IMG/VR virus record: IMGVR_UViG_3300045988_120282
Span: 70,940-134,939 of that record
Direction: 5' to 3' (one strand)
From: a virus
Length of the DNA: 64,000 bases
The position numbers and the translations under genes were made by a program. A model generated the notes under the pieces. The model saw only the letters and a program-made list of their open reading frames with translations, ran no database searches and was not told the origin of the DNA. Positions 4,080-43,408 of this stretch are shown here, one piece after another (position 1 is the stretch's first letter; each line of letters starts with the position of its first letter).

Positions 4080-4264
4080 TACTCATGATGATATGAGTAT
4101 ACACCATAACGGAAAGACTCGACTATTGAAGCTAATAGTTACTTTATATGAACGGAAAGACTGTACTACTGGTTGATGGTAGTGACGTATTGGAACGGAA
4201 AAACGGTGGCGTATGGTAGATAAAAGAGTGCTTTTATCGGTGGGTTCGATTCCTATCCCGTCAC
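4080..4264. repeat. non-coding region with palindrome, three 43-bp-spaced AACGGAAA(GACT) iterons and a tRNA T-arm-like fragment
   Basis: TACTCAT-N6-ATGAGTA palindrome 4080-4099; AACGGAAAGACT at 4108 and 4151, AACGGAAAAACGG at 4194 (exact 43-nt phasing); GGTGGGTTCGATTCC at 4239-4253 shares the 11-mer GGTTCGATTCC with the T-arm of the tRNA at 33740. Confidence 0.5.
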
Positions 4265-6953: not shown

Positions 6954-7235
6954 ATGAATGATAAAAAATATGATACAGAAATGATGGTGGCAATATGTCA
7001 AGAGTATGAAGATGCTTCTCAAACTTTATCTAGCCTGACGAAAACATTAGCAATTGTTCATATGAAGTTGGTTCAGGCAGAAAGCTATACGCAAGAAATC
7101 TCACTCAAACAGTATAAAAGACTGAAAGAAGAGGTAAAAGAATTAACAACAGCAGTACATGATGCAACTATTATGCTCAATGTTTGGGATAAAGCACGAG
7201 AAGTTTGTATGGAAGTTATAGATGATGAAAATTAA
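6954..7235 (+). CDS. hypothetical protein
   Basis: ORF; start after AGGAGATGGAAATT. Confidence 0.5.
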   Translation: MNDKKYDTEMMVAICQEYEDASQTLSSLTKTLAIVHMKLVQAESYTQEISLKQYKRLKEEVKELTTAVHDATIMLNVWDKAREVCMEVIDDEN

Positions 7236-7270
7236 ATGTCAATTTTATCGTAGGAAGGATGGAAATAATC

Positions 7271-17872: not shown

Positions 17873-18823
17873 ATGGCAGCAACACAGTTTGAAGTTATTA
17901 AAACAGCAAACAATAATAACGCAGAAGAACCTGAAGCAAAGATCAAAAGACGTAAGGACGGAAATCCTAAATGGACTCGATCTAATAAACAAAAAGGCGT
18001 ATCATCTTTAGTGTATCCAATTAAGAACAAAGAAAAATTTGCAGCCTTTAATGCATATTTTAGAGACCAGATTGATAAATCGTACACAGAGTACAAACGA
18101 TATGTAGCTGCCAGAAACAATCTTTTGGTTGCAGTTGGAAACAATACAGCATATCGTATCTCTGATATCGTCAGACTCAAATGGGGCGATTTATTAAACG
18201 ATAAGACTCGTAAGCAGGAAAAGAAAACAAAGAAATTCAGAACTGTATACTTTAACGATTTGGTAACTGAAGCAGTGGATATTTTCTTTGAAGCTGTTGC
18301 AGGAACTAAATATGATGTCAAGATTGATGGCGAAGTGCCAATGGATGATTATGTTTTTGGAACATGTAAGTCTGGATCAGGACACATGACTGAAGCAAAT
18401 GCTTTGGATTTTGTTAAAAAAGGTGCTAAAGCAGTTGGAATTGAGGACAATATTGGTACGCATACATTACGAAAGAACTTTGTGTATTGGACACTTGTCG
18501 ATCATAAAGATGATCAGAACGTATTGTATACACTTATGAGATTATTGAATCATAGTAGCCCTGCAATGACATTTCTGTATGCAACAATCACAGAGGAAGA
18601 AACTCATGTATTGTTTGATGATATTGCGCAGACATACAAGGAAATTATCAGTGGGGCTTTTAACGGATTGAAGGAAAATGTTGTTAATGTGAGTTATGAT
18701 AGAGTTATGGAGATTATCAAGTTTGCTTATAAGACTGGCAAAGATGATGCAGATCAAGATGATAGAGTACATGAAGATAATATGCAGGCATTAGAAGAGT
18801 TATTGGAAGGAGTAATTGTATGA
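17873..18823 (+). CDS. tyrosine recombinase / phage integrase family protein
   Basis: Catalytic signature present: box I AYRISDIVRLKWGDL (Arg), GTHTLRKNF (His-x-x-Arg), LLNHSSPAMTFLYA (His ... Tyr). Confidence 0.8.
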   Translation: MAATQFEVIKTANNNNAEEPEAKIKRRKDGNPKWTRSNKQKGVSSLVYPIKNKEKFAAFNAYFRDQIDKSYTEYKRYVAARNNLLVAVGNNTAYRISDIVRLKWGDLLNDKTRKQEKKTKKFRTVYFNDLVTEAVDIFFEAVAGTKYDVKIDGEVPMDDYVFGTCKSGSGHMTEANALDFVKKGAKAVGIEDNIGTHTLRKNFVYWTLVDHKDDQNVLYTLMRLLNHSSPAMTFLYATITEEETHVLFDDIAQTYKEIISGAFNGLKENVVNVSYDRVMEIIKFAYKTGKDDADQDDRVHEDNMQALEELLEGVIV

Positions 18824-20507: not shown

Positions 20508-20521
20508 AAATGGAGAATGTT

Positions 20522-21538
20522 ATGAATAATAAAGAATTGATACAAAATTATATAGATTCTCACGTATCAGAATCACGTCGCCCAACATGGAATTGGTTAT
20601 TAGATTCTGATATTGCGGACGACAATGAATCTGGGTTAACGTATGCACCAGGCACAATCCAAAAGGCTATATTATCAGATACTAGAGGTAAAAAAACCAA
20701 AAGTATGAATTCTATTAAAAAAAGATATGACCAGCTTGTGAAATTGTATACTTATGCATATGAACAAAATTACATTAAATATAATCCATTTGTTAATGAT
20801 AAATTTATAAACTTGCAATTAGCAGTTGATATATATTTTTCAAATAGAGTTAATGTTAATTATGTTACGCCAGATAAAATAAATGCGTTTATTTCGAATC
20901 TGATGTCGTGCAATGCATCAGCCGATACCAAATTGAATACTAGATTTCACATTGTGAGTTTATATAATGGGATAAATGGAAAGGAGTTAAGAAATCTAAA
21001 ATTCTCGGATATTAATCAAAATGATTTAACAATTTTTGGGAAACCAGTCTCCAAAGATTTTATCGAGACATTGAATGAATATAAATTGAAAATGGGAGAT
21101 ACGAATATATATGATGATTTTGTATTAATACCACGAAAAAAATGTAATAATATAGAAGAATATAAAGCAGAGCAAAAGAGGATATATAATAATGTGCAGT
21201 CTCAATTAGAATTAACAGGCAATACTTTATCTTATGAAAAATTGACAACCATTGATGTTATTAATTCTGGTTTTATACAATATTTAAAATCTAAAATGGA
21301 TATCAAGGCAATTGCAGATTTATATTATATTAAATCAAAAGAAGGAATTGCACGATCTGTAATCGCACGTCAATTTAGTGATATTGCAATTGATTTTTAT
21401 TATAATTATTATATATCATATAGAATAAAGAAGAAACAATTTAGTGATCGTCAAACGGTAATCGGTAAAAGTATTGGTTACCTATATAAAGATGAGGACT
21501 ATAAGAATTATCGTGTACATCAAATCATGGCAGAATAA
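20522..21538 (+). CDS. hypothetical protein with tyrosine-recombinase-like N-terminal/core-binding features but degenerate catalytic motifs
   Basis: AYEQNYIKYNPFVN resembles the core-binding domain end and GINGKELRNLKFSDI resembles box I; no H-x-x-R or His/Tyr box recognisable, so functional call is weak. Confidence 0.3.
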   Translation: MNNKELIQNYIDSHVSESRRPTWNWLLDSDIADDNESGLTYAPGTIQKAILSDTRGKKTKSMNSIKKRYDQLVKLYTYAYEQNYIKYNPFVNDKFINLQLAVDIYFSNRVNVNYVTPDKINAFISNLMSCNASADTKLNTRFHIVSLYNGINGKELRNLKFSDINQNDLTIFGKPVSKDFIETLNEYKLKMGDTNIYDDFVLIPRKKCNNIEEYKAEQKRIYNNVQSQLELTGNTLSYEKLTTIDVINSGFIQYLKSKMDIKAIADLYYIKSKEGIARSVIARQFSDIAIDFYYNYYISYRIKKKQFSDRQTVIGKSIGYLYKDEDYKNYRVHQIMAE

Positions 21539-27794: not shown

Positions 27795-28631
27795 ATGATT
27801 ACTATTGGTGGAGTACCAGTTGTTCCAGAATCTTTTCCAGATGGAACACAGAAAATTGATTTACCGTTAGGAGCAATGAGATCACGGATTGCAGTAAATA
27901 AATTTGTATCAATTGAATGGCTGTATGAATCAGATAAAGAATTATTTTCGCTATATTGTATTTCAAAAAGTATTCGAGAATATTTCCCACATTTATCACA
28001 GTGTTTAGTGATGCCGTATATTCCGAATGCAAGATTTGACAGGGTTAAAGATCATAACGAATGTTTTACATTAAAATATTTTGCAGAAATCATCAATGAA
28101 TTAAATTTCAGAAAGGTCATCGTAGCAGATCCTCACTCAGATGTTTCTAAAGCATTGATTGATCACCTACAATATATACCAATTAAACTATATATTTCTA
28201 AGGTTTGCAATAAAGTCCTTAAAGCAGAACCATCAAGAAATCTTGTAATCTATTTCCCAGATAGCGGATCACTAAAAAGATATTCTGAATTTGTATCAGA
28301 TGATTATCCGATTGTCTATGGAATTAAAAATCGTGATTGGAAGACAGGCAAAATTCTTGGTATTGAGATTCATGGAGATACAGATAAATTAGATGAGAAT
28401 ACAGCAATTTTAATGATTGATGATATTTGTAGTAAGGGTGGCACATTCTACTACGGATCAAAAGAATTAAACAAATACGGTTGTAAAGATATGTATTTAT
28501 ATGTTAGTCACTGTGAAAATACAATTCTTGATGGAGAATTATTAAAGGAAGATAGTTTGTTTAAAAAAGTGTATACGACACGTAGTATTTTTACAAAAGA
28601 GCATGAGAAGGTTGAGGTGTTAGATTTATGA
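27795..28631 (+). CDS. ribose-phosphate pyrophosphokinase (Prs) homolog; candidate ADP-ribose pyrophosphokinase (Adps-like)
   Basis: Prs-family blocks VMPYIPNARFDR (vs PYYGYARQDR), VIVADPHS (vs IALDLHA), AILMIDDICSKGGT (vs AILIDDIIDTAGT); shorter and divergent relative to housekeeping Prs. Confidence 0.75.
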   Translation: MITIGGVPVVPESFPDGTQKIDLPLGAMRSRIAVNKFVSIEWLYESDKELFSLYCISKSIREYFPHLSQCLVMPYIPNARFDRVKDHNECFTLKYFAEIINELNFRKVIVADPHSDVSKALIDHLQYIPIKLYISKVCNKVLKAEPSRNLVIYFPDSGSLKRYSEFVSDDYPIVYGIKNRDWKTGKILGIEIHGDTDKLDENTAILMIDDICSKGGTFYYGSKELNKYGCKDMYLYVSHCENTILDGELLKEDSLFKKVYTTRSIFTKEHEKVEVLDL

Positions 28632-30097
28632 AACAGACAAATCCAATGTTATTAATTGATTTTTACAAAGCAGTCCATGCTGAAATGTTACCAAAAGGTA
28701 TTACAAAATCTGTTTCTTATTTTACTCCACGTATGAGCAGAGTAAAACGATGGAATGAAGTAGCCATGTTTGGATTACAAGGATTCATTAAAGAGTATTT
28801 GGTCGATTATTTTAATGAGTATTTTTTCTTTGAATATAGAAACAAAGCAATTGGTACTTATAAGACAGTAATGGATGCAGCTCTTGGAGAAGGTACATAT
28901 GGATTACAGAAAATCGAAGATTTATATGATCTTGGCTATCTTCCAATTGAGATTAAGGCTCTTCCTGAAGGAACTTTAGTACCAATGCATGTGCCGATGT
29001 TTAGTATTGAGAATACTCACAAAGATTTTGCATGGTTACCACAGGCATTAGAAAGTTTAATTTCAGCAGAAATGTGGCATCCGATGATAGCTGCGACTGT
29101 CGGGCATACATATAGACAGATCGTTAATAAGTTTTATGAAATGACTTGCGATGATGATATCCCAAAATCTAAGGCATTAGGGGCTTTCGATTTTCGTGGC
29201 GAAGAATGTTTACAGTCTGCGGTTAAAGCAGGGGCAGGATGGTGTTTATCATTCTTGAATACAGCAACAGTTCCAACAATTCCGTATTTAGAGAGAAATT
29301 ATAACTGTGATTGTACGAAAGAGCCAGTTGCTTTTGGTAGTCCGTCTACTGAGCATTCGGTTATGTGTAGTAATTATGCGATTGACGGAGATGAAGAGAC
29401 ACTGATTAAAAGATTGCTAACAGAGATTTACCCAAATACAAGCTTCTCCGCAGTGTTAGATTCTTATGATTATTGGAATGTTGTAGAGAATATTCTTCCA
29501 AAACTCAAGAATGAGATCATGAATCACAATGGATGTTTTCTTGTAAGAGGGGATTCAGGAGATTGTGTAGATGTAGTAACCAGAACAGTATTCAAGTTAT
29601 GGGAAGAATTTGGCGGAACTACGAATAGTAAAGGATACAAAGTATTAGATCCTCATGTAAAAGCAATTTATGGAGATTCAATTACAGTGCAGAGATGTGA
29701 GCAGATTTATGACATCTTAGAGAAAAATGGATTCGCAGCAAGCAATGTTGCACTTGGCGTTGGATCATTCTCATTTCAGTGTATCGAAGAAGATGGAGTT
29801 TTGAAACCATTTACAAGAGATACGTTTAGTAGTTGCATCAAAGCAACATATTGTGAGATTGATGGCAGACCATATCCGATTTTTAAGAATCCAAAAGATG
29901 GCGGATTTAAGAAATCTCAGAGAGGTTTATGTCATGTCTATAAAGGATCAGACGGCAAACTGACATTTAAAGATGAATATACTTCAGAAAATCTTCCAAT
30001 GAATAATTTGCTTGAGACGGTATTTAGAGACGGTAAATTGGTCAAAGAACAGTCATTACAGGAGATTAGAAGAGTGTTAAACGAAGGAGAATTTTAA
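28628..30097 (+). CDS. NAMPT-family phosphoribosyltransferase (NadV / Namat-like)
   Basis: Collinear with NAMPT over full length: LLIDFYKAVH, LPIEIKALPEG, FDFRGEE, PSTEHSV, VLDSYD, VRGDSGD, NSKGYKVLDPHVKAIYGDSI. Confidence 0.85.
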   Translation: MKQTNPMLLIDFYKAVHAEMLPKGITKSVSYFTPRMSRVKRWNEVAMFGLQGFIKEYLVDYFNEYFFFEYRNKAIGTYKTVMDAALGEGTYGLQKIEDLYDLGYLPIEIKALPEGTLVPMHVPMFSIENTHKDFAWLPQALESLISAEMWHPMIAATVGHTYRQIVNKFYEMTCDDDIPKSKALGAFDFRGEECLQSAVKAGAGWCLSFLNTATVPTIPYLERNYNCDCTKEPVAFGSPSTEHSVMCSNYAIDGDEETLIKRLLTEIYPNTSFSAVLDSYDYWNVVENILPKLKNEIMNHNGCFLVRGDSGDCVDVVTRTVFKLWEEFGGTTNSKGYKVLDPHVKAIYGDSITVQRCEQIYDILEKNGFAASNVALGVGSFSFQCIEEDGVLKPFTRDTFSSCIKATYCEIDGRPYPIFKNPKDGGFKKSQRGLCHVYKGSDGKLTFKDEYTSENLPMNNLLETVFRDGKLVKEQSLQEIRRVLNEGEF

Positions 30098-30114
30098 GAG
30101 AGGAGATATAAAAC

Positions 30115-30885
30115 ATGAGTTTTAATGCAGCAGAAACCAAAGACAGATTAGTACAGTGGATTAGAGATTGGTTTAAAGTTAATGGAAGATGGTGTAATGC
30201 CGTTGTAGGAATTTCAGGCGGTAAAGATTCATCAGTTGTCGCTGCCTTATGTGTCGAAGCACTAGGTAAAGATCGAGTTATTGGAATTATGATGCCACAG
30301 GGTGTGCAGAGTGATATTGAGTATTCTCAGATGCTATGTGATCATCTAGGAATTGAACATTACACAGTTAATATTTTTAATGCTTGCAGAGATATTAAAC
30401 ATGAAATCAGAGATGAATTAGGCGGTAAATGGAGTAAACAGAGTGCCACAAATTTACCTGCTCGTATCCGAATGGCTACATTGTATGCTTTTGCACAGAG
30501 TATGAATGGAAGAGTAGCAAATACATGTAATTTATCTGAAGATTGGGTCGGATATGCAACAAGATATGGAGATTCAGCCGGAGATTTTAGTCCATTAAGT
30601 GATCTGACTGTGACAGAAGTTAAAGCAATTGGTAGAGTTCTGGGACTTCCAACAGAGTTAATCGAAAAAACACCTACTGATGGATTATGCGGTAAGACAG
30701 ATGAAGATAATCTTGGATTTACATATGATATGTTAGACGAATATCTGAGAACTGGAGTATGTAAAGATGAAGCAGTGAGACAGATCATTGACGAGATGCA
30801 TGAGAAGAATGTATTTAAACTTGCTCCAATGCCTAAATTTATATCTGGCATGTGGATCGAGGCAGGAATGGAGTTGGATGATTAA
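30115..30885 (+). CDS. nadE: NH3-dependent NAD+ synthetase
   Basis: PP-loop VVGISGGKDSSVVAALC and overall NadE length/architecture. Confidence 0.85.
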   Translation: MSFNAAETKDRLVQWIRDWFKVNGRWCNAVVGISGGKDSSVVAALCVEALGKDRVIGIMMPQGVQSDIEYSQMLCDHLGIEHYTVNIFNACRDIKHEIRDELGGKWSKQSATNLPARIRMATLYAFAQSMNGRVANTCNLSEDWVGYATRYGDSAGDFSPLSDLTVTEVKAIGRVLGLPTELIEKTPTDGLCGKTDEDNLGFTYDMLDEYLRTGVCKDEAVRQIIDEMHEKNVFKLAPMPKFISGMWIEAGMELDD

Positions 30886-32760: not shown

Positions 32761-33495
32761 ATGGCAATTATTATTATTTGTGTAATTGTAGCAATTATCG
32801 CATATTTACAATTTACTAAAAACGGAAAGCAGATTAAAAATGTGGCATCTGGAACAGTTGCAGAAAAGATCAAAGAAAATGCAATGACTCCAGAGGGAGC
32901 AAGAGCCAGATATAATACTGCAATTAAAGAGAAACAGGACTTTTATAAGAAAACAATGGGTACATACACAACGGTAGCTGGTAGATTGGCAACAATGGAA
33001 GATGATCTCAAAGAAACAAAAGAAGAAATTTCTAAAACCGAGGCAATGATCAACCAGTACATTGATAATCATGATGATAAAAAAGCAATGTATTATGCTC
33101 AAAAATTAGCCACGCTAAAGGCACAGAAATCAGTGTACGAAAAGAAAATCCCAGAGTTGCAATCCACAAAAGATAAACAAGAAGAAATTAAAAACCAAGC
33201 GTATGATCAGCTCATTAAGCTAAAAAGCGAAAAAGATACTGTGGTTCTTCAGATGGAGGCAGATCAGCAGATTGCAGAATTGCAGAAAAATTTAGATCAA
33301 TACAATAGTTCAAATGCTGCTCAGGAAGGTTTGGAAGAGGTTCGAGAAGGAGCAAAGAAACTTAGCGAACAAGCCAAAGGCGTTGCTATTGCGTATGAAT
33401 CTAGTGCAGAAACATTGGATTATCATATGGAGCAAGAAGAGCGACAGCAAGAAGCTAAAGCCATATTAGATCAGATGAAAAATGCTCGCAAATAA
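32761..33495 (+). CDS. membrane-anchored coiled-coil protein, PspA/IM30-like
   Basis: N-terminal TM helix then long heptad-repeat region; MEDDLKETKEEISKTEAMI and later segments resemble PspA helices; assignment is tentative. Confidence 0.4.
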   Translation: MAIIIICVIVAIIAYLQFTKNGKQIKNVASGTVAEKIKENAMTPEGARARYNTAIKEKQDFYKKTMGTYTTVAGRLATMEDDLKETKEEISKTEAMINQYIDNHDDKKAMYYAQKLATLKAQKSVYEKKIPELQSTKDKQEEIKNQAYDQLIKLKSEKDTVVLQMEADQQIAELQKNLDQYNSSNAAQEGLEEVREGAKKLSEQAKGVAIAYESSAETLDYHMEQEERQQEAKAILDQMKNARK

Positions 33496-33536
33496 CGAAT
33501 AAATTCATCTACAAAAATTAATTTCACAAACATAAA

Positions 33537-33630
33537 ACTGGCATTTTATGACTCTATAAAACACAATATATAGTGATTATCCAATTATTGAACCACTATA
33601 TATAGTTGTATAAAGTGCCAGTCATGGAAA
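33537..33630. repeat. large nested inverted repeat upstream of tRNA
   Basis: Outer arms AACTGGCATTTTATGAC / ATAAAGTGCCAGTCAT; inner arms CACAATATATAGTG / CACTATATATAGTTGT. Confidence 0.45.
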
Positions 33631-33763
33631 CATAGCTCAGTTGGTAGAGCAGGCAATACATAAACATTCATTTTTCTACCTCCATATAAGTATTTTTATT
33701 TATTTACATTTAATTTTCATCACATATAAATTGCCGACACAGGTTCGATTCCTGTTGTTTCCA
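33626..33763 (+). tRNA. tRNA gene interrupted by an ~67-nt AT-rich insertion in the anticodon loop (anticodon region CAT?)
   Basis: 5' half GGAAACA-TA-GCTC-AGTTGGTA-GAGC-A-GGCAA (33626-33656) and 3' half TTGCC-GAC-ACAGG-TTCGATT-CCTGT-TGTTTCC-A (33731-33763) form perfect acceptor, D, anticodon and T stems; loop begins TACATAA; no encoded CCA. Confidence 0.5.
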
Positions 33764-33765
33764 CT

Positions 33766-33802
33766 AAAAAAGACCTCAACCTAAATGGTTAAAGTCTTTT
33801 TG
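33766..33802. terminator. bidirectional rho-independent terminator
   Basis: AAAAAAGAC ... GTCTTTTTT two-segment hairpin with U-tracts on both strands, between convergent tRNA and repressor gene. Confidence 0.55.
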
Positions 33803-33803
33803 G

Positions 33804-34007
33804 TTAATCGTTTGGTATGACCTCGATAACATCTTCAACTTTGCAATCAAGATATAAGCAAATTTTGTCAATGTTTTCGAGACTGATATACTGATTCTTT
33901 GCCATCTTGGCAATTGTACCAGACCCCATATTTAAAGCGGTTCGTAAATCAGATTTTGTCATACCCTTTTTCGCTAAAGTTACGAAAAGCGGTTTATAAC
34001 TTATCAT
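33804..34007 (-). CDS. XRE-family helix-turn-helix transcriptional repressor (Cro/CI-like)
   Basis: MTKSDLRTALNMGSGTIAKMAKNQYISLENIDKICLYLDCKVEDVIEV is a canonical XRE HTH; RBS GGAGGT 7 nt before ATG 34007; only minus-strand gene, divergent from an operator-bearing promoter. Confidence 0.8.
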   Translation of the reverse strand: MISYKPLFVTLAKKGMTKSDLRTALNMGSGTIAKMAKNQYISLENIDKICLYLDCKVEDVIEVIPND

Positions 34008-34083
34008 ATGATATACCTCCACATCTATATTGTAACATATTATATACAGGATGTAAAATAAAATATTCAAGAAGTTGAAGATT

Positions 34084-34117
34084 TTGCATTGACACTATGT
34101 GCAAGAAGTGGTATATT
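34084..34117 (+). promoter_or_regulatory. promoter/operator copy 3: TTGCA-TTGACA-ctatg-TGCAA ... TGgTATATT
   Basis: -35 TTGACA 34089-34094, 17-nt spacer, extended -10 TGgTATATT; TTGCA / TGCAA inverted repeat around the -35; divergent to the XRE gene. Confidence 0.55.
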
Positions 34118-42044: not shown

Positions 42045-42561
42045 TGAACAGCGAAAGCTGATTGAAGATAATTATTCTTTAATTTGGCATTTACATGAAA
42101 AATATTTTACAAAGTTTACAGATTTTGATACATATATGGATCTTGGTCGTATGGCAATTTGTAAAGCAGCATTAAAATGGGACGAGTCTAAAGGAACTTT
42201 TGGTACATATCTCTTCTGGGTATTACGTTCAGAAGTGAATCAATATTATACAAAATGGCACAGACCAACAGAAAAAATGAATAGGAATGCTGAATCGTTA
42301 GATACGCCATTGGCAGGATATGAACCAGAAGATGATATTACAATCGGAACAACACTGATGAGTGGGGATAACGTAGAAGATGAGGTGCTTACAAAGGTAC
42401 ATTTTCAAAATGAGTTTGATAAATTGGCACCGAGAAATAAAAAGATTATCACGTTAAAGCAGAAAGGTTTAACACAAAGACAAATTGCAAGTCAGCTTGG
42501 AATCACTCATCAGTGGGTTAGTCAAAATATTGTACAGTTTAAGAAAGCATTATGTGGATAA
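42028..42561 (+). CDS. sigma-70-family RNA polymerase sigma factor (region 2 + region 4)
   Basis: GTG start behind AGGAGG; LIWHLHEKYF..YMDLGRMAICKAALKWDESKGTFGTYLFWVLRSEV (region 2) and LTQRQIASQLGITHQWVSQNIVQFKKAL (region 4 HTH). Confidence 0.8.
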   Translation: MKKLNDEQRKLIEDNYSLIWHLHEKYFTKFTDFDTYMDLGRMAICKAALKWDESKGTFGTYLFWVLRSEVNQYYTKWHRPTEKMNRNAESLDTPLAGYEPEDDITIGTTLMSGDNVEDEVLTKVHFQNEFDKLAPRNKKIITLKQKGLTQRQIASQLGITHQWVSQNIVQFKKALCG

Positions 42562-42574
42562 AAGAGGTGAGACC

Positions 42575-43408
42575 ATGACAATTGAAGAAGTAAAGAATTA
42601 CATAAACTCGTCTACAGAGTATGACTTTTTGCGAGATTATCCGCACAAAATCGCTTTTCTCACGTTAGGTGGAAGTTATGCCTACGGAACAAACACAGAG
42701 GATTCTGACATTGATTTACGTGGTGTTTTTCTTAGTGATAAAAGAGAGATTTTGTTGAATAATAACCAGAACAATCTTGAGAAGACCGATAATCATAAAG
42801 ACATTGATACCGTGTTACATTCGCATATTAAGATGATTAATATGCTTGCCAAGGGCAATCCTACATTTTTAGAGTTGCTATACTTTGCGCCAGACCGCTA
42901 TTTGTATGTATCCGATATTGGTATGGAGTTGATCAAAAATAGAGACATGTTCTTATCTAAGAGAGTTTATCATGCATATAAAGGATATATATGCGATTGT
43001 CTGACTCGAACGAGTTTTAAGTATTATAAAAATAAAGATTCAGAGAAAGAAAAGCAAAAGGCAGAACGATACGCTAATAAATCAATGATGCATGCAGTTC
43101 GATTATTGTTGCAGGGCATTGAATTATTACATAACGGAACAATGTTTGGGTCTATGGACGACATAGGAAAAGATCTTGTAAAGATCAAAGAAGGGTATAA
43201 TAGTACGCATAAAACATATAGATTTAGCAAACACAATGAGCATACAGAATATTTCCCAAATCAGTCATACGATGTTTTTATTGAAGGATTACTTTATCAA
43301 TTTGATTATGATTATATGAATACTGATTTGCCAGACGAACCAGACTGGGATCGTATCAATAACTTCTTGATGACAACAAATGAACGAATTGTGAGAGGAA
43401 TGGTGTAA
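42575..43408 (+). CDS. predicted nucleotidyltransferase (minimal NTase-fold, GS-x-D-x-D)
   Basis: LTLGGSYAYGTNTEDSDIDLRGVF is the NTase-fold G[SG]...D.D signature; start at ATG 42575 behind RBS AAGAGGTGA. Confidence 0.55.
   Translation: MTIEEVKNYINSSTEYDFLRDYPHKIAFLTLGGSYAYGTNTEDSDIDLRGVFLSDKREILLNNNQNNLEKTDNHKDIDTVLHSHIKMINMLAKGNPTFLELLYFAPDRYLYVSDIGMELIKNRDMFLSKRVYHAYKGYICDCLTRTSFKYYKNKDSEKEKQKAERYANKSMMHAVRLLLQGIELLHNGTMFGSMDDIGKDLVKIKEGYNSTHKTYRFSKHNEHTEYFPNQSYDVFIEGLLYQFDYDYMNTDLPDEPDWDRINNFLMTTNERIVRGMV

Follow-up and report, generated by a model that had tools for sequence, protein, structure and literature searches.

A tRNA-Val-derived phage gene with a conserved AT-rich insert in place of its anticodon loop: a candidate non-decoding tRNA mimic

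What does a phage keep in a tRNA gene whose anticodon loop has given way to some 70 nt of AT-rich sequence? The question is raised by one locus in a 64,000-nt stretch of viral DNA (IMG/VR record IMGVR_UViG_3300045988_120282, positions 70,940 to 134,939; the whole stretch is called the window below). A first-pass annotation, made from the sequence alone, had described there a tRNA-shaped gene with perfect 7-, 4-, 5- and 5-bp stems, split by an AT-rich stretch of about 67 nt, and had left it open whether the gene contained an unusual intron, was a pseudogene or was the remnant of an attachment site. We propose, with a probability of roughly 45%, that the locus encodes a non-decoding tRNA mimic, derived from tRNA-Val and predicted to mature as a tRNA does, which would display a constrained single-stranded loop and would probably serve as an accessory or counter-defence RNA. 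Because body and loop are both kept by selection, such a mimic is likelier than either a classical intron or a gene that has broken down.

The Rfam tRNA model RF00005 matched positions 33626-33763 of the plus strand over model positions 1-71, with 46.4 bits relative to a gathering score of 29 (E = 9.6e-07), and in this alignment the anticodon arm held 81 nt where the model expects 15. ARAGORN run by default, without its intron mode, reported zero tRNAs in the 64 kb; run with the intron option (-i), it folded the gene into a cloverleaf whose 7/4/5/5-bp stems were perfect and placed a 67-nt insert after position 32. Both the split gene and its perfect stems were thus confirmed by the kind of intron-aware search that the first-pass annotation had recommended, the RF00005 match being full-length and the coordinates (Table 1) being read from the sequence. 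The conserved residues of the D and T loops were present. The contiguous 7-nt anticodon loop of an ordinary tRNA, with U33, a purine at position 37 and a standard anticodon, was replaced by a loop of 74 nt, and the variable loop was 3 nt long (GAC) in all variants, rather than the 4-5 nt of class I or the long arm of class II tRNAs. The acceptor pair at positions 3-70 was A3-U70. No CCA was encoded after A73, the next letters being CTA. The Rfam scan of the window gave no second match, and neither the window nor the 10 kb on each side of it contained a further tRNA or Rfam RNA, so that this was the sole tRNA-like gene across the ~84 kb of phage genome examined.

Table 1. Coordinates of the split tRNA-like gene and of neighbouring features in the window
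Feature	Position	Strand	Description and basis
tRNA-like gene, 5' half	33626..33656	+	tRNA positions 1-31: acceptor GGAAACA, TA, D arm GCTC-AGTTGGTA-GAGC, A26, anticodon stem GGCAA; Rfam match, ARAGORN -i drawing
Loop and insert in place of the 7-nt anticodon loop	33657..33730	+	74 nt, 82% A+T
"Intron" called by ARAGORN -i	33658-33724	+	67 nt
tRNA-like gene, 3' half	33731..33763	+	Anticodon stem TTGCC, variable loop GAC, T arm ACAGG-TTCGATT-CCTGT, acceptor TGTTTCC, discriminator A73
Rejected 28-codon open reading frame	33585..33671	-	GGAGG-N7-ATG; sequence
phrog_33389, last protein gene of the operon	32761..33495	+	N-terminal membrane helix, then a long coiled coil
Conserved upstream hairpin	33538..33621	+	Stem CTGGCAT (33538-33544) / GTGCCAG (33615-33621)
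Leader TCAT between hairpin and tRNA-like gene	33622-33625	+	4 nt
Imperfect hairpin, flanked by A-run and T-run	33766..33801	.	AAAAAAGACCTCAACC-TAAAT-GGTTAAAGTCTTTTT; sequence; no call by a consensus terminator scanner
Cro/CI-type helix-turn-helix (HTH) regulator, convergent	33804..34010	-	Sole minus-strand gene of the region; Pfam HTH_26, E = 1.4e-14
Divergent promoter-like sites	34029-34117		
Tyrosine-recombinase (integrase-family) genes	17873-18823 and 20510-21538		

The body of the gene resembled the tRNA-Val(UAC) of Clostridium, to which the acceptor, D arm and T arm were nearly identical. Compared with 77 distinct tRNAs from host loci, the two halves matched tRNA-Val best, with a score of 34 vs 20.5 for the next. 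A 23-nt T-arm/acceptor pattern, CAGGTTCGATYCCTGTTGTTTCC, occurred at 102 genome loci, where it belonged to tRNA-Val(UAC); almost all of these lay in Clostridium sensu stricto (nigeriense, disporicum, tertium, hominis, saudiense, sartagoforme and cuniculi), with a few in Oscillospiraceae, and identity between the phage and host 3' ends extended over 23-27 nt. The host is therefore probably a gut Clostridium, and by tRNA-Val identity the best candidates are C. disporicum, C. saudiense, C. tertium, C. hominis and C. nigeriense. The phage gene differed from the host tRNA-Val(UAC) in its anticodon stem (GGCAA/TTGCC vs TCTGC/GCAGA) and in its variable loop (GAC vs GGGTC), from which we concluded that the entire anticodon arm had been replaced and not merely interrupted. 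The tentative reading of the CAT beside the 5' stem as a Met or Ile (CAU) anticodon fared poorly: the body is tRNA-Val(UAC)-like, position 33 is A, and the CAT itself is not conserved, being CGT in one variant and shifted in register by +1, -1 or -2 nt in others. Among the bacterial sequences, one locus (L127, Clostridiaceae bacterium AF10-41, JAQCTH010000011.1) had a tRNA-Glu-like 5' part joined at TTCA to a tRNA-Val 3' part, an apparent chimera that arose by recombination or as an assembly artefact.

When the locus was compared by megablast with 50,697 phage records there were zero matches, and so no close relative among these deposited genomes. Thirty-three IMG/VR contigs, most of them from human-gut samples and the longest ~170 kb, contained the exact 3' half, all 33 in the interrupted form. 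With the neighbouring protein phrog_33389 as an anchor, 72 related loci were collected. The split gene was present in 38 of the 38 loci whose anchor was 72-100% identical, with inserts of 63-71 nt and with confirmation by Rfam in all six relatives scanned, and was absent from the 34 loci with 36-38% anchor identity; all known carriers belong to one clade. A pattern for the uninterrupted allele had no match in IMG/VR or the JGI metagenomes (241 million records), and one for any shorter insert gave a single chance match, in unrelated GC-rich DNA. The insertion polymorphism that had been thought worth seeking among homologous phages was accordingly not found in these two collections.

Sequence diversity was measured over 36 distinct haplotypes, and the four-fold degenerate sites in the genes on either side served as the neutral reference. 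At these sites diversity was 0.129 and 46% of sites were variable, compared with diversities of 0.018 in the 64-nt tRNA body (~7-fold lower; Mann-Whitney p = 5e-5) and 0.043 in the 74-nt loop (~3-fold lower; p = 3e-4); body and loop did not differ significantly from each other. The 5' half, with a diversity of 0.0105, was at least as constrained as the 3' half, and the loop stayed between 70 and 77 nt long. The locus is not decaying, and body and loop are both under purifying selection. Because 38 of 38 related loci carry the gene and its variability is far below that of neutral sites, the split tRNA-like gene is beyond chance. In 20 distinct variants 99.5% of stem cells were paired. Six stem pairs varied, each on one side only and each to G.U (C11U, C13U, C29U, C42U, C43U and A49G); all six are C-to-T or A-to-G changes on the plus strand, and the absence of any mirror-image change points to selection at the level of RNA. 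The anticodon stem accounted for three of these G.U-compatible changes and for zero disruptive ones. One relative apart (see below), the lack of disruptive stem changes and the strand asymmetry fit selection on a plus strand RNA.

The loop was as unusual in composition as in length. The 75 nt from 33656 to 33730 contained 27 A, 35 T, 12 C and a single G, the sole spot in the 64 kb with no more than one G in 75 nt (the window mean is 15.9), and every variant had only one or two G residues there. CAU occurred seven times, ACAU four times and UACAU twice, all enriched relative to shuffled sequences (p ~0.001, 0.004 and 0.05, respectively). The last 18 nt before the 3' stem were nearly invariant, and indels lay in T-runs and beside the 5' stem. 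No conserved secondary structure was found in the loop: minimum-free-energy and consensus folds gave only the anticodon stem, of 5-6 bp. A search of 33450-33850 against Rfam families at E up to 10 returned only noise at E 5-9 and no intron or ribozyme family, and the window held no second copy of the insert, as a mobile element might have left.

Several other roles for the insert were considered and rejected. The first-pass annotation had noticed, on the minus strand, a GGAGG-N7-ATG that opens a 28-codon reading frame. The sequence is there as described (33671-33585), and we reject it as a gene, since the frame is shifted and variable in length among relatives, with 9-11 codons in L039, L041, L046, L053 and L065 and 17-45 in other relatives. 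The ACCTCC hexamer varies (GCCTCC, ATCTCC, ACTTCC), which rejects both an anti-Shine-Dalgarno (CCUCC) role and a Shine-Dalgarno sequence for that frame. An antisense RNA was suggested by 17 nt of perfect complementarity between the loop and positions 7223-7239 (E = 2e-4); the pairing is not conserved, contig 122050 having an indel in the loop and an unchanged target, and the target occurs in just 4 contigs. An internal promoter reached a match of only 9/12, and promoter-like sites were not enriched over shuffles. A tag frame through the insert, as in tmRNA, is broken by indels that are not multiples of 3.

We propose that the mimic would be made as follows. The locus would be transcribed from the plus strand at the end of an operon with NAD-salvage, SPFH and coiled-coil genes. 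If the usual enzymes of tRNA maturation act on it, RNase P would cut 4 nt past the conserved upstream hairpin and RNase Z, since CCA is not encoded, would cut after A73, whereupon the CCA-adding enzyme would finish a stable L-shaped RNA of ~141 nt. Lacking a 7-nt anticodon loop, this RNA could not read codons. Its tRNA-shaped handle, showing a long single-stranded loop, might instead bind a factor of host or phage origin or titrate it, or might tether two, by a logic analogous to that of YrlA-type Y RNAs and of engineered tRNA scaffolds. We infer that an anti-defence role is the most likely setting because counter-defence genes surround the locus.

Several points weigh against this proposal. 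That the locus is transcribed and processed, and that the insert is not spliced out, are predictions. There were no compensatory double substitutions among the 20 variants, and the relatives are too close for covariation to prove anything by itself. The only unpaired stem cells came from one relative (L050, IMG/VR 3300045988_101578) with two changes that break the acceptor stem. A variable loop of 3 nt is unusual for a well-folded tRNA core, and the loop is without the motifs of the Ro60-associated RNAs described below. Profiles of the candidate partners Ro60, DUF2828, phrog_33734 and T4 Rnl1 found nothing in the window (the first three in its six-frame open reading frames at E up to 10), and no TROVE domain appeared in Pfam scans of the window. 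Finally, the conserved loop sequence could represent splicing signals or a DNA-level site instead. As to the exceptional relative itself, L050 matches the window over the whole locus except for T66C and T69G, which are either sequencing errors or a rare defective allele.

If splicing signals are what is conserved, the gene would contain a new protein-dependent intron: an endoribonuclease would cut the loop and an RNA ligase, either RtcB of the host or a phage enzyme acting with the RlaP nucleotidyltransferase, would join the halves to a 71-nt decoding tRNA, giving a species of ~74 nt in which GGCAAU is joined to UAUAAAUUGCC, or GGCAA(U) to (U)AUAAAUUGCC. The loop that ARAGORN -i forms by excision is formally canonical (U/A32, U33, A37 and A38) and sits on a perfect 5-bp stem in 38 of 38 relatives, the whole insert is constrained with its 18 nt beside the 3' stem nearly invariant, and the predicted 5' boundary coincides exactly with a U^ACAUA site, which is the cleavage motif of Gram-positive MazF (PMC10893535). 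RlaP, which the phage also encodes, belongs to a family that occurs in company with RNA ligases (PMC7824862). However, the features of group I and bulge-helix-bulge (BHB) introns are absent, and neither an RNA ligase nor a splicing endonuclease was found among the open reading frames scanned in the 64 kb or among the Pfam labels of the two 10-kb flanks. The part of the loop next to the 5' stem, moreover, shifts by -2 to +1 nt among variants, and UACAU is not avoided genome-wide (115 observed vs ~100 expected), a count that also led us to reject a role of the loop as a MazF decoy. The formal excision product, with the loop U/A-U-AUA-A-A, would combine an AUA anticodon with a tRNA-Val body whose variable loop has 3 nt; no bacterial synthetase or decoding system is known for such a tRNA, and it is not a plausible decoder. 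An intron is therefore unlikely, although the least unlikely of the alternatives, and a more specific version, in which the G-free 67-nt spacer is a tRNA intron new to bacterial viruses, cut by a MazF-type nuclease and sealed by a ligase with RlaP, is distinctly improbable; it would make maturation of the tRNA conditional on an active host nuclease. The tRNA shape might, alternatively, act only in cis, recruiting RNase P so that the upstream mRNA ends in the conserved hairpin and the freed tRNA-like RNA has no role of its own, as in the logic of MALAT1/mascRNA and of tRNA punctuation. This would suit the position at the end of a long plus-strand operon, the hairpin stem 4 nt before position 1, which is conserved despite a 60-70-nt insertion in its loop, and the terminator-like hairpin directly 3'. 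RNase P requires neither an anticodon stem nor a loop, and we judge a cis-acting module rather unlikely when the anticodon stem has accepted only G.U-compatible changes and the sequence of the loop is itself constrained and nearly G-free.

Selection might also act on the DNA, the locus being either an attP-like site for the host tRNA-Val or a protein-binding or AT-rich unwinding site at the boundary of transcription modules. Identity of up to 27 nt with the 3' end of the host tRNA-Val is typical in extent for a T-loop att core, there are two integrase-family genes in the window (Table 1), and the locus lies between convergent and divergent transcription units. Against this, the 5' half, which is useless as an att core, is conserved at least as well as the 3' half, the one-directional G.U changes in the stems point to RNA-level selection, the integrase genes are 12-15 kb distant, the 102 host tRNA-Val loci have no adjoining phage DNA and the cumulative GC skew has no turn at the locus. 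The gene also lacks the marks of an attP, namely a 3' portion only, an adjoining integrase and attL and attR in the host. A DNA-level element is thus very unlikely, and the suggestion that the insertion marks an att-site remnant finds no support, given the equal constraint of the 5' half and the lack of a prophage junction at any of those host loci. We likewise rejected a prophage origin, as host loci share nothing with the phage beyond the tRNA resemblance, only the tRNA 3' end being common. Least probable of all is a tRNA pseudogene, that is, a captured tRNA-Val broken by an insertion, or an att remnant, and passively inherited. The lack of a usable anticodon, the 3-nt variable loop, the damaged acceptor stem of one relative and the restriction of carriers to a single clade would agree with such a history. 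But the gene is present in 100% of relatives (38/38), its loop is held at 70-77 nt and is depleted of G in all variants, and across the same 36 haplotypes its body and insert are 7-fold and 3-fold less diverse than neutral sites. The pseudogene that had been considered earlier therefore does not agree with a body and insert that evolve 3-7 times slower than four-fold sites, nor with the lack of an uninterrupted homologue in the collections searched.

The proposed mimic can be compared with several known systems. The YrlA Y RNAs, which imitate tRNA, are acted on by RNase P, by the CCA-adding enzyme and by enzymes that modify tRNA (Chen et al. 2014, PMC4201824). Like them (RF02553), the phage RNA would be non-decoding and has tRNA-like acceptor, D and T arms with another module replacing the anticodon loop, and YrlA too is carried by phages. 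In contrast, YrlA has a closed acceptor and ends in a Ro60-binding stem, whereas the phage element ends at the acceptor like a real tRNA; YrlA adjoins a Ro60 gene, whereas the 64 kb hold no Ro60, TROVE or DUF2828 gene; and YrlA has a GNCGAAN0-1G helix (PMC4201824), whereas the phage loop has one G and no helix. RF02553 gave no match at the locus with E up to 10. Group I introns also interrupt anticodon loops, in genes for tRNA-Leu (UAA), fMet, Ile and Arg and, in Patescibacteria, Asn and Asp (PMC13011429), and standard finders miss such genes; these introns, however, are ~200 nt or longer with a P1-P9 fold, whereas the phage insert is 63-71 nt, unstructured and almost free of G, and there was no Intron_gpI match, which bears out the earlier remark that it is too short for this class. 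The BHB introns of archaea and eukaryotes, removed by a splicing endonuclease with RtcB or Trl1, are likewise short, protein-dependent inserts in or near the anticodon loop; as had been expected, splicing of this type is not indicated, since no bulge-helix-bulge motif could be formed in minimum-free-energy or consensus folds, the predicted site is 32/33 rather than 37/38, and the setting is bacterial. The tRNA-Tyr introns of giant viruses recovered in the scan described below do sit at ~37/38. Engineered tRNA scaffolds, in which a foreign RNA is placed on an anticodon stem, are said to be processed and stabilised like tRNA, as Ponchon and Dardel reportedly found in 2007; the architecture is identical to that of the phage element, except that the scaffold is artificial and the phage element natural and conserved, with an unstructured cargo. 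In tmRNA, which has a G3.U70 alanine identity pair, pseudoknots, a tag reading frame and a length of ~260 nt or more, a tRNA-like acceptor and T arm are likewise joined to a non-tRNA module; the phage element differs in its A3-U70 pair, in indels that break every frame and in having no tmRNA match. The tRNA fragments at the att sites of integrative elements (PMC9897764) are, like the 23-27 nt of tRNA-Val identity here, copies of a host tRNA 3' end, but such copies hold the 3' part only, whereas the phage element has an equally constrained 5' half. Full-text searches of the literature on short tRNA introns, phage tRNA mimics and Y RNAs, and MazF specificity found no description of such an element.

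Non-decoding RNAs with the shape of a tRNA are few: YrlA-type Y RNAs, tmRNA, viral tRNA-like structures and mascRNA. If the proposed mimic is real, it would be a natural, selectively kept counterpart of the laboratory tRNA scaffold, in a phage rich in counter-defence genes, and a target bound by its loop or its tRNA-Val-like body could reveal a new RNA-based control by phages of host tRNA biology or immunity. Should the insert be excised instead, the gene would hold the first tRNA intron of bacterial type to fall outside both group I and BHB.

Inserts in the anticodon arm were also found elsewhere. When IMG/VR was scanned generically for a T-loop lying 70-100 nt beyond a common D-arm string, >100 loci were obtained, from which tandem tRNAs and the giant-virus tRNA-Tyr genes with ordinary 37/38 introns were removed. 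Dozens of unrelated phage contigs contained genes with tRNA topology in which an insert of 44-70 nt occupied the 5' side of the anticodon arm. This insert lay mostly after nucleotide 28, sometimes after 29/30 or 31-33, and was structured, with an A-rich run, a hairpin containing G-C pairs and then an (A)CAGCAA or GTTACTT motif. Its removal often restored a perfect anticodon arm for Lys(UUU), Asn(GUU), Ser(UGA), Gly(UCC), Tyr(GUA) or Val(UAC), and in some lineages the anticodon loop was degenerate. At 17 loci the RNA had on its own strand, at a distance of 30-650 nt, a gene for Ro60 (TROVE + vWA; L217, L222, L265, L280 and L296), for DUF2828 + DUF7788 (phrog_850; L215, L220, L227, L238, L253, L257, L270 and L305) or for phrog_33734 (L246, L247, L272 and L307), and in L234, L256 and L291 a T4-type RNA ligase gene (T4 Rnl1) was found ~2 kb away on the same strand. 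Rfam labelled these RNAs just as tRNA, and the YrlA model gave sub-threshold hits that straddled neighbouring tRNAs. They may represent either a new type of intron or a Y-RNA-like class without the permutation; in YrlA RNAs the same parts come in permuted order, beside Ro60 genes (PMC4201824), and TROVE proteins and RlaP have been described among the components of RNA-repair systems in jumbo phages (PMC7824862). The element in the window has the topology and the side of the arm in common with this class, but lacks the hairpin, the motifs and the partner gene, and because the motifs and such a neighbour are absent we did not file it there. The class suggests that anticodon-arm inserts are a recurrent phage design missed by standard tRNA finders.

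Another tRNA-like element was observed just upstream of the CCA-adding-enzyme gene in four phages of 213-217 kb (L072, positions 4081-4136; L075, 4061-4194; L076 and L104), whose phrog_33389 homologue is 38% identical to that of the window. This element, with a GTGCAG/CTGCAC acceptor, a 3-bp D stem and a T arm, was missed by Rfam and called by ARAGORN only in intron mode, the call being forced in L075, L076 and L104. The place of the anticodon arm was taken by ~12 nt in L072 and by ~90 nt of AT-rich sequence with two hairpins in the other three, and ~250 nt of apparently non-coding sequence preceded the element.

The window is 33% G+C and has nearly all of its genes on the plus strand. Upstream of the tRNA-like gene are genes for PRPP synthase, NAMPT, NAD synthase, a flotillin/SPFH protein and phrog_33389. 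The last of these matched, among phage records, only gp247 of Bacillus phage G and one unannotated record, at 25-27% identity; it was rejected as an RNA-binding partner, being a membrane-anchored coiled coil for which no PDB relative was found. The stem of the hairpin that follows is kept in every relative, whether its loop is short or long, with T-A or T.G as the seventh pair, and the lack of a T-run after it indicates that it is not an intrinsic terminator. Its loop (33545-33614) holds a polymorphic segment of ~60-70 nt with a 13-16-nt inverted repeat, ACAATATATAGTG ... CACTATATATAGTTGT, present in roughly half of the relatives, the rest having a loop of 8-9 nt; the segment could be an operator or a miniature insertion. 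The imperfect hairpin on the other side of the gene is likely, from its sequence, to be a two-way terminator between the plus-strand operon and the minus-strand HTH gene.

Elsewhere the window encodes a sigma factor, the RlaP nucleotidyltransferase, the two integrase-family proteins and a replication module, and the 10-kb flanks on a 180-kb JGI contig (Ga0250207_00017) encode ArdA, a Tad2-like protein, an ADP-ribosylglycohydrolase and LigA. Genes of counter-defence type are dense here (27795-30885 and 42485-43408 of the window; 7619-8167 of L319; 14671-14934 and 17731-18570 of L316), comprising PRPP synthase, NAMPT and NAD synthase (NAD+ reconstitution), the RNA-repair-associated RlaP, ArdA, the Tad2-like protein and the ADP-ribosylglycohydrolase. 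One relative, L321, has two larger integrase genes at the end of its contig. Over the whole window CCTGG is the rarest 5-mer relative to expectation (observed/expected 0.22) and CCAGG stands at 0.43, which suggests avoidance of a CCWGG restriction site.

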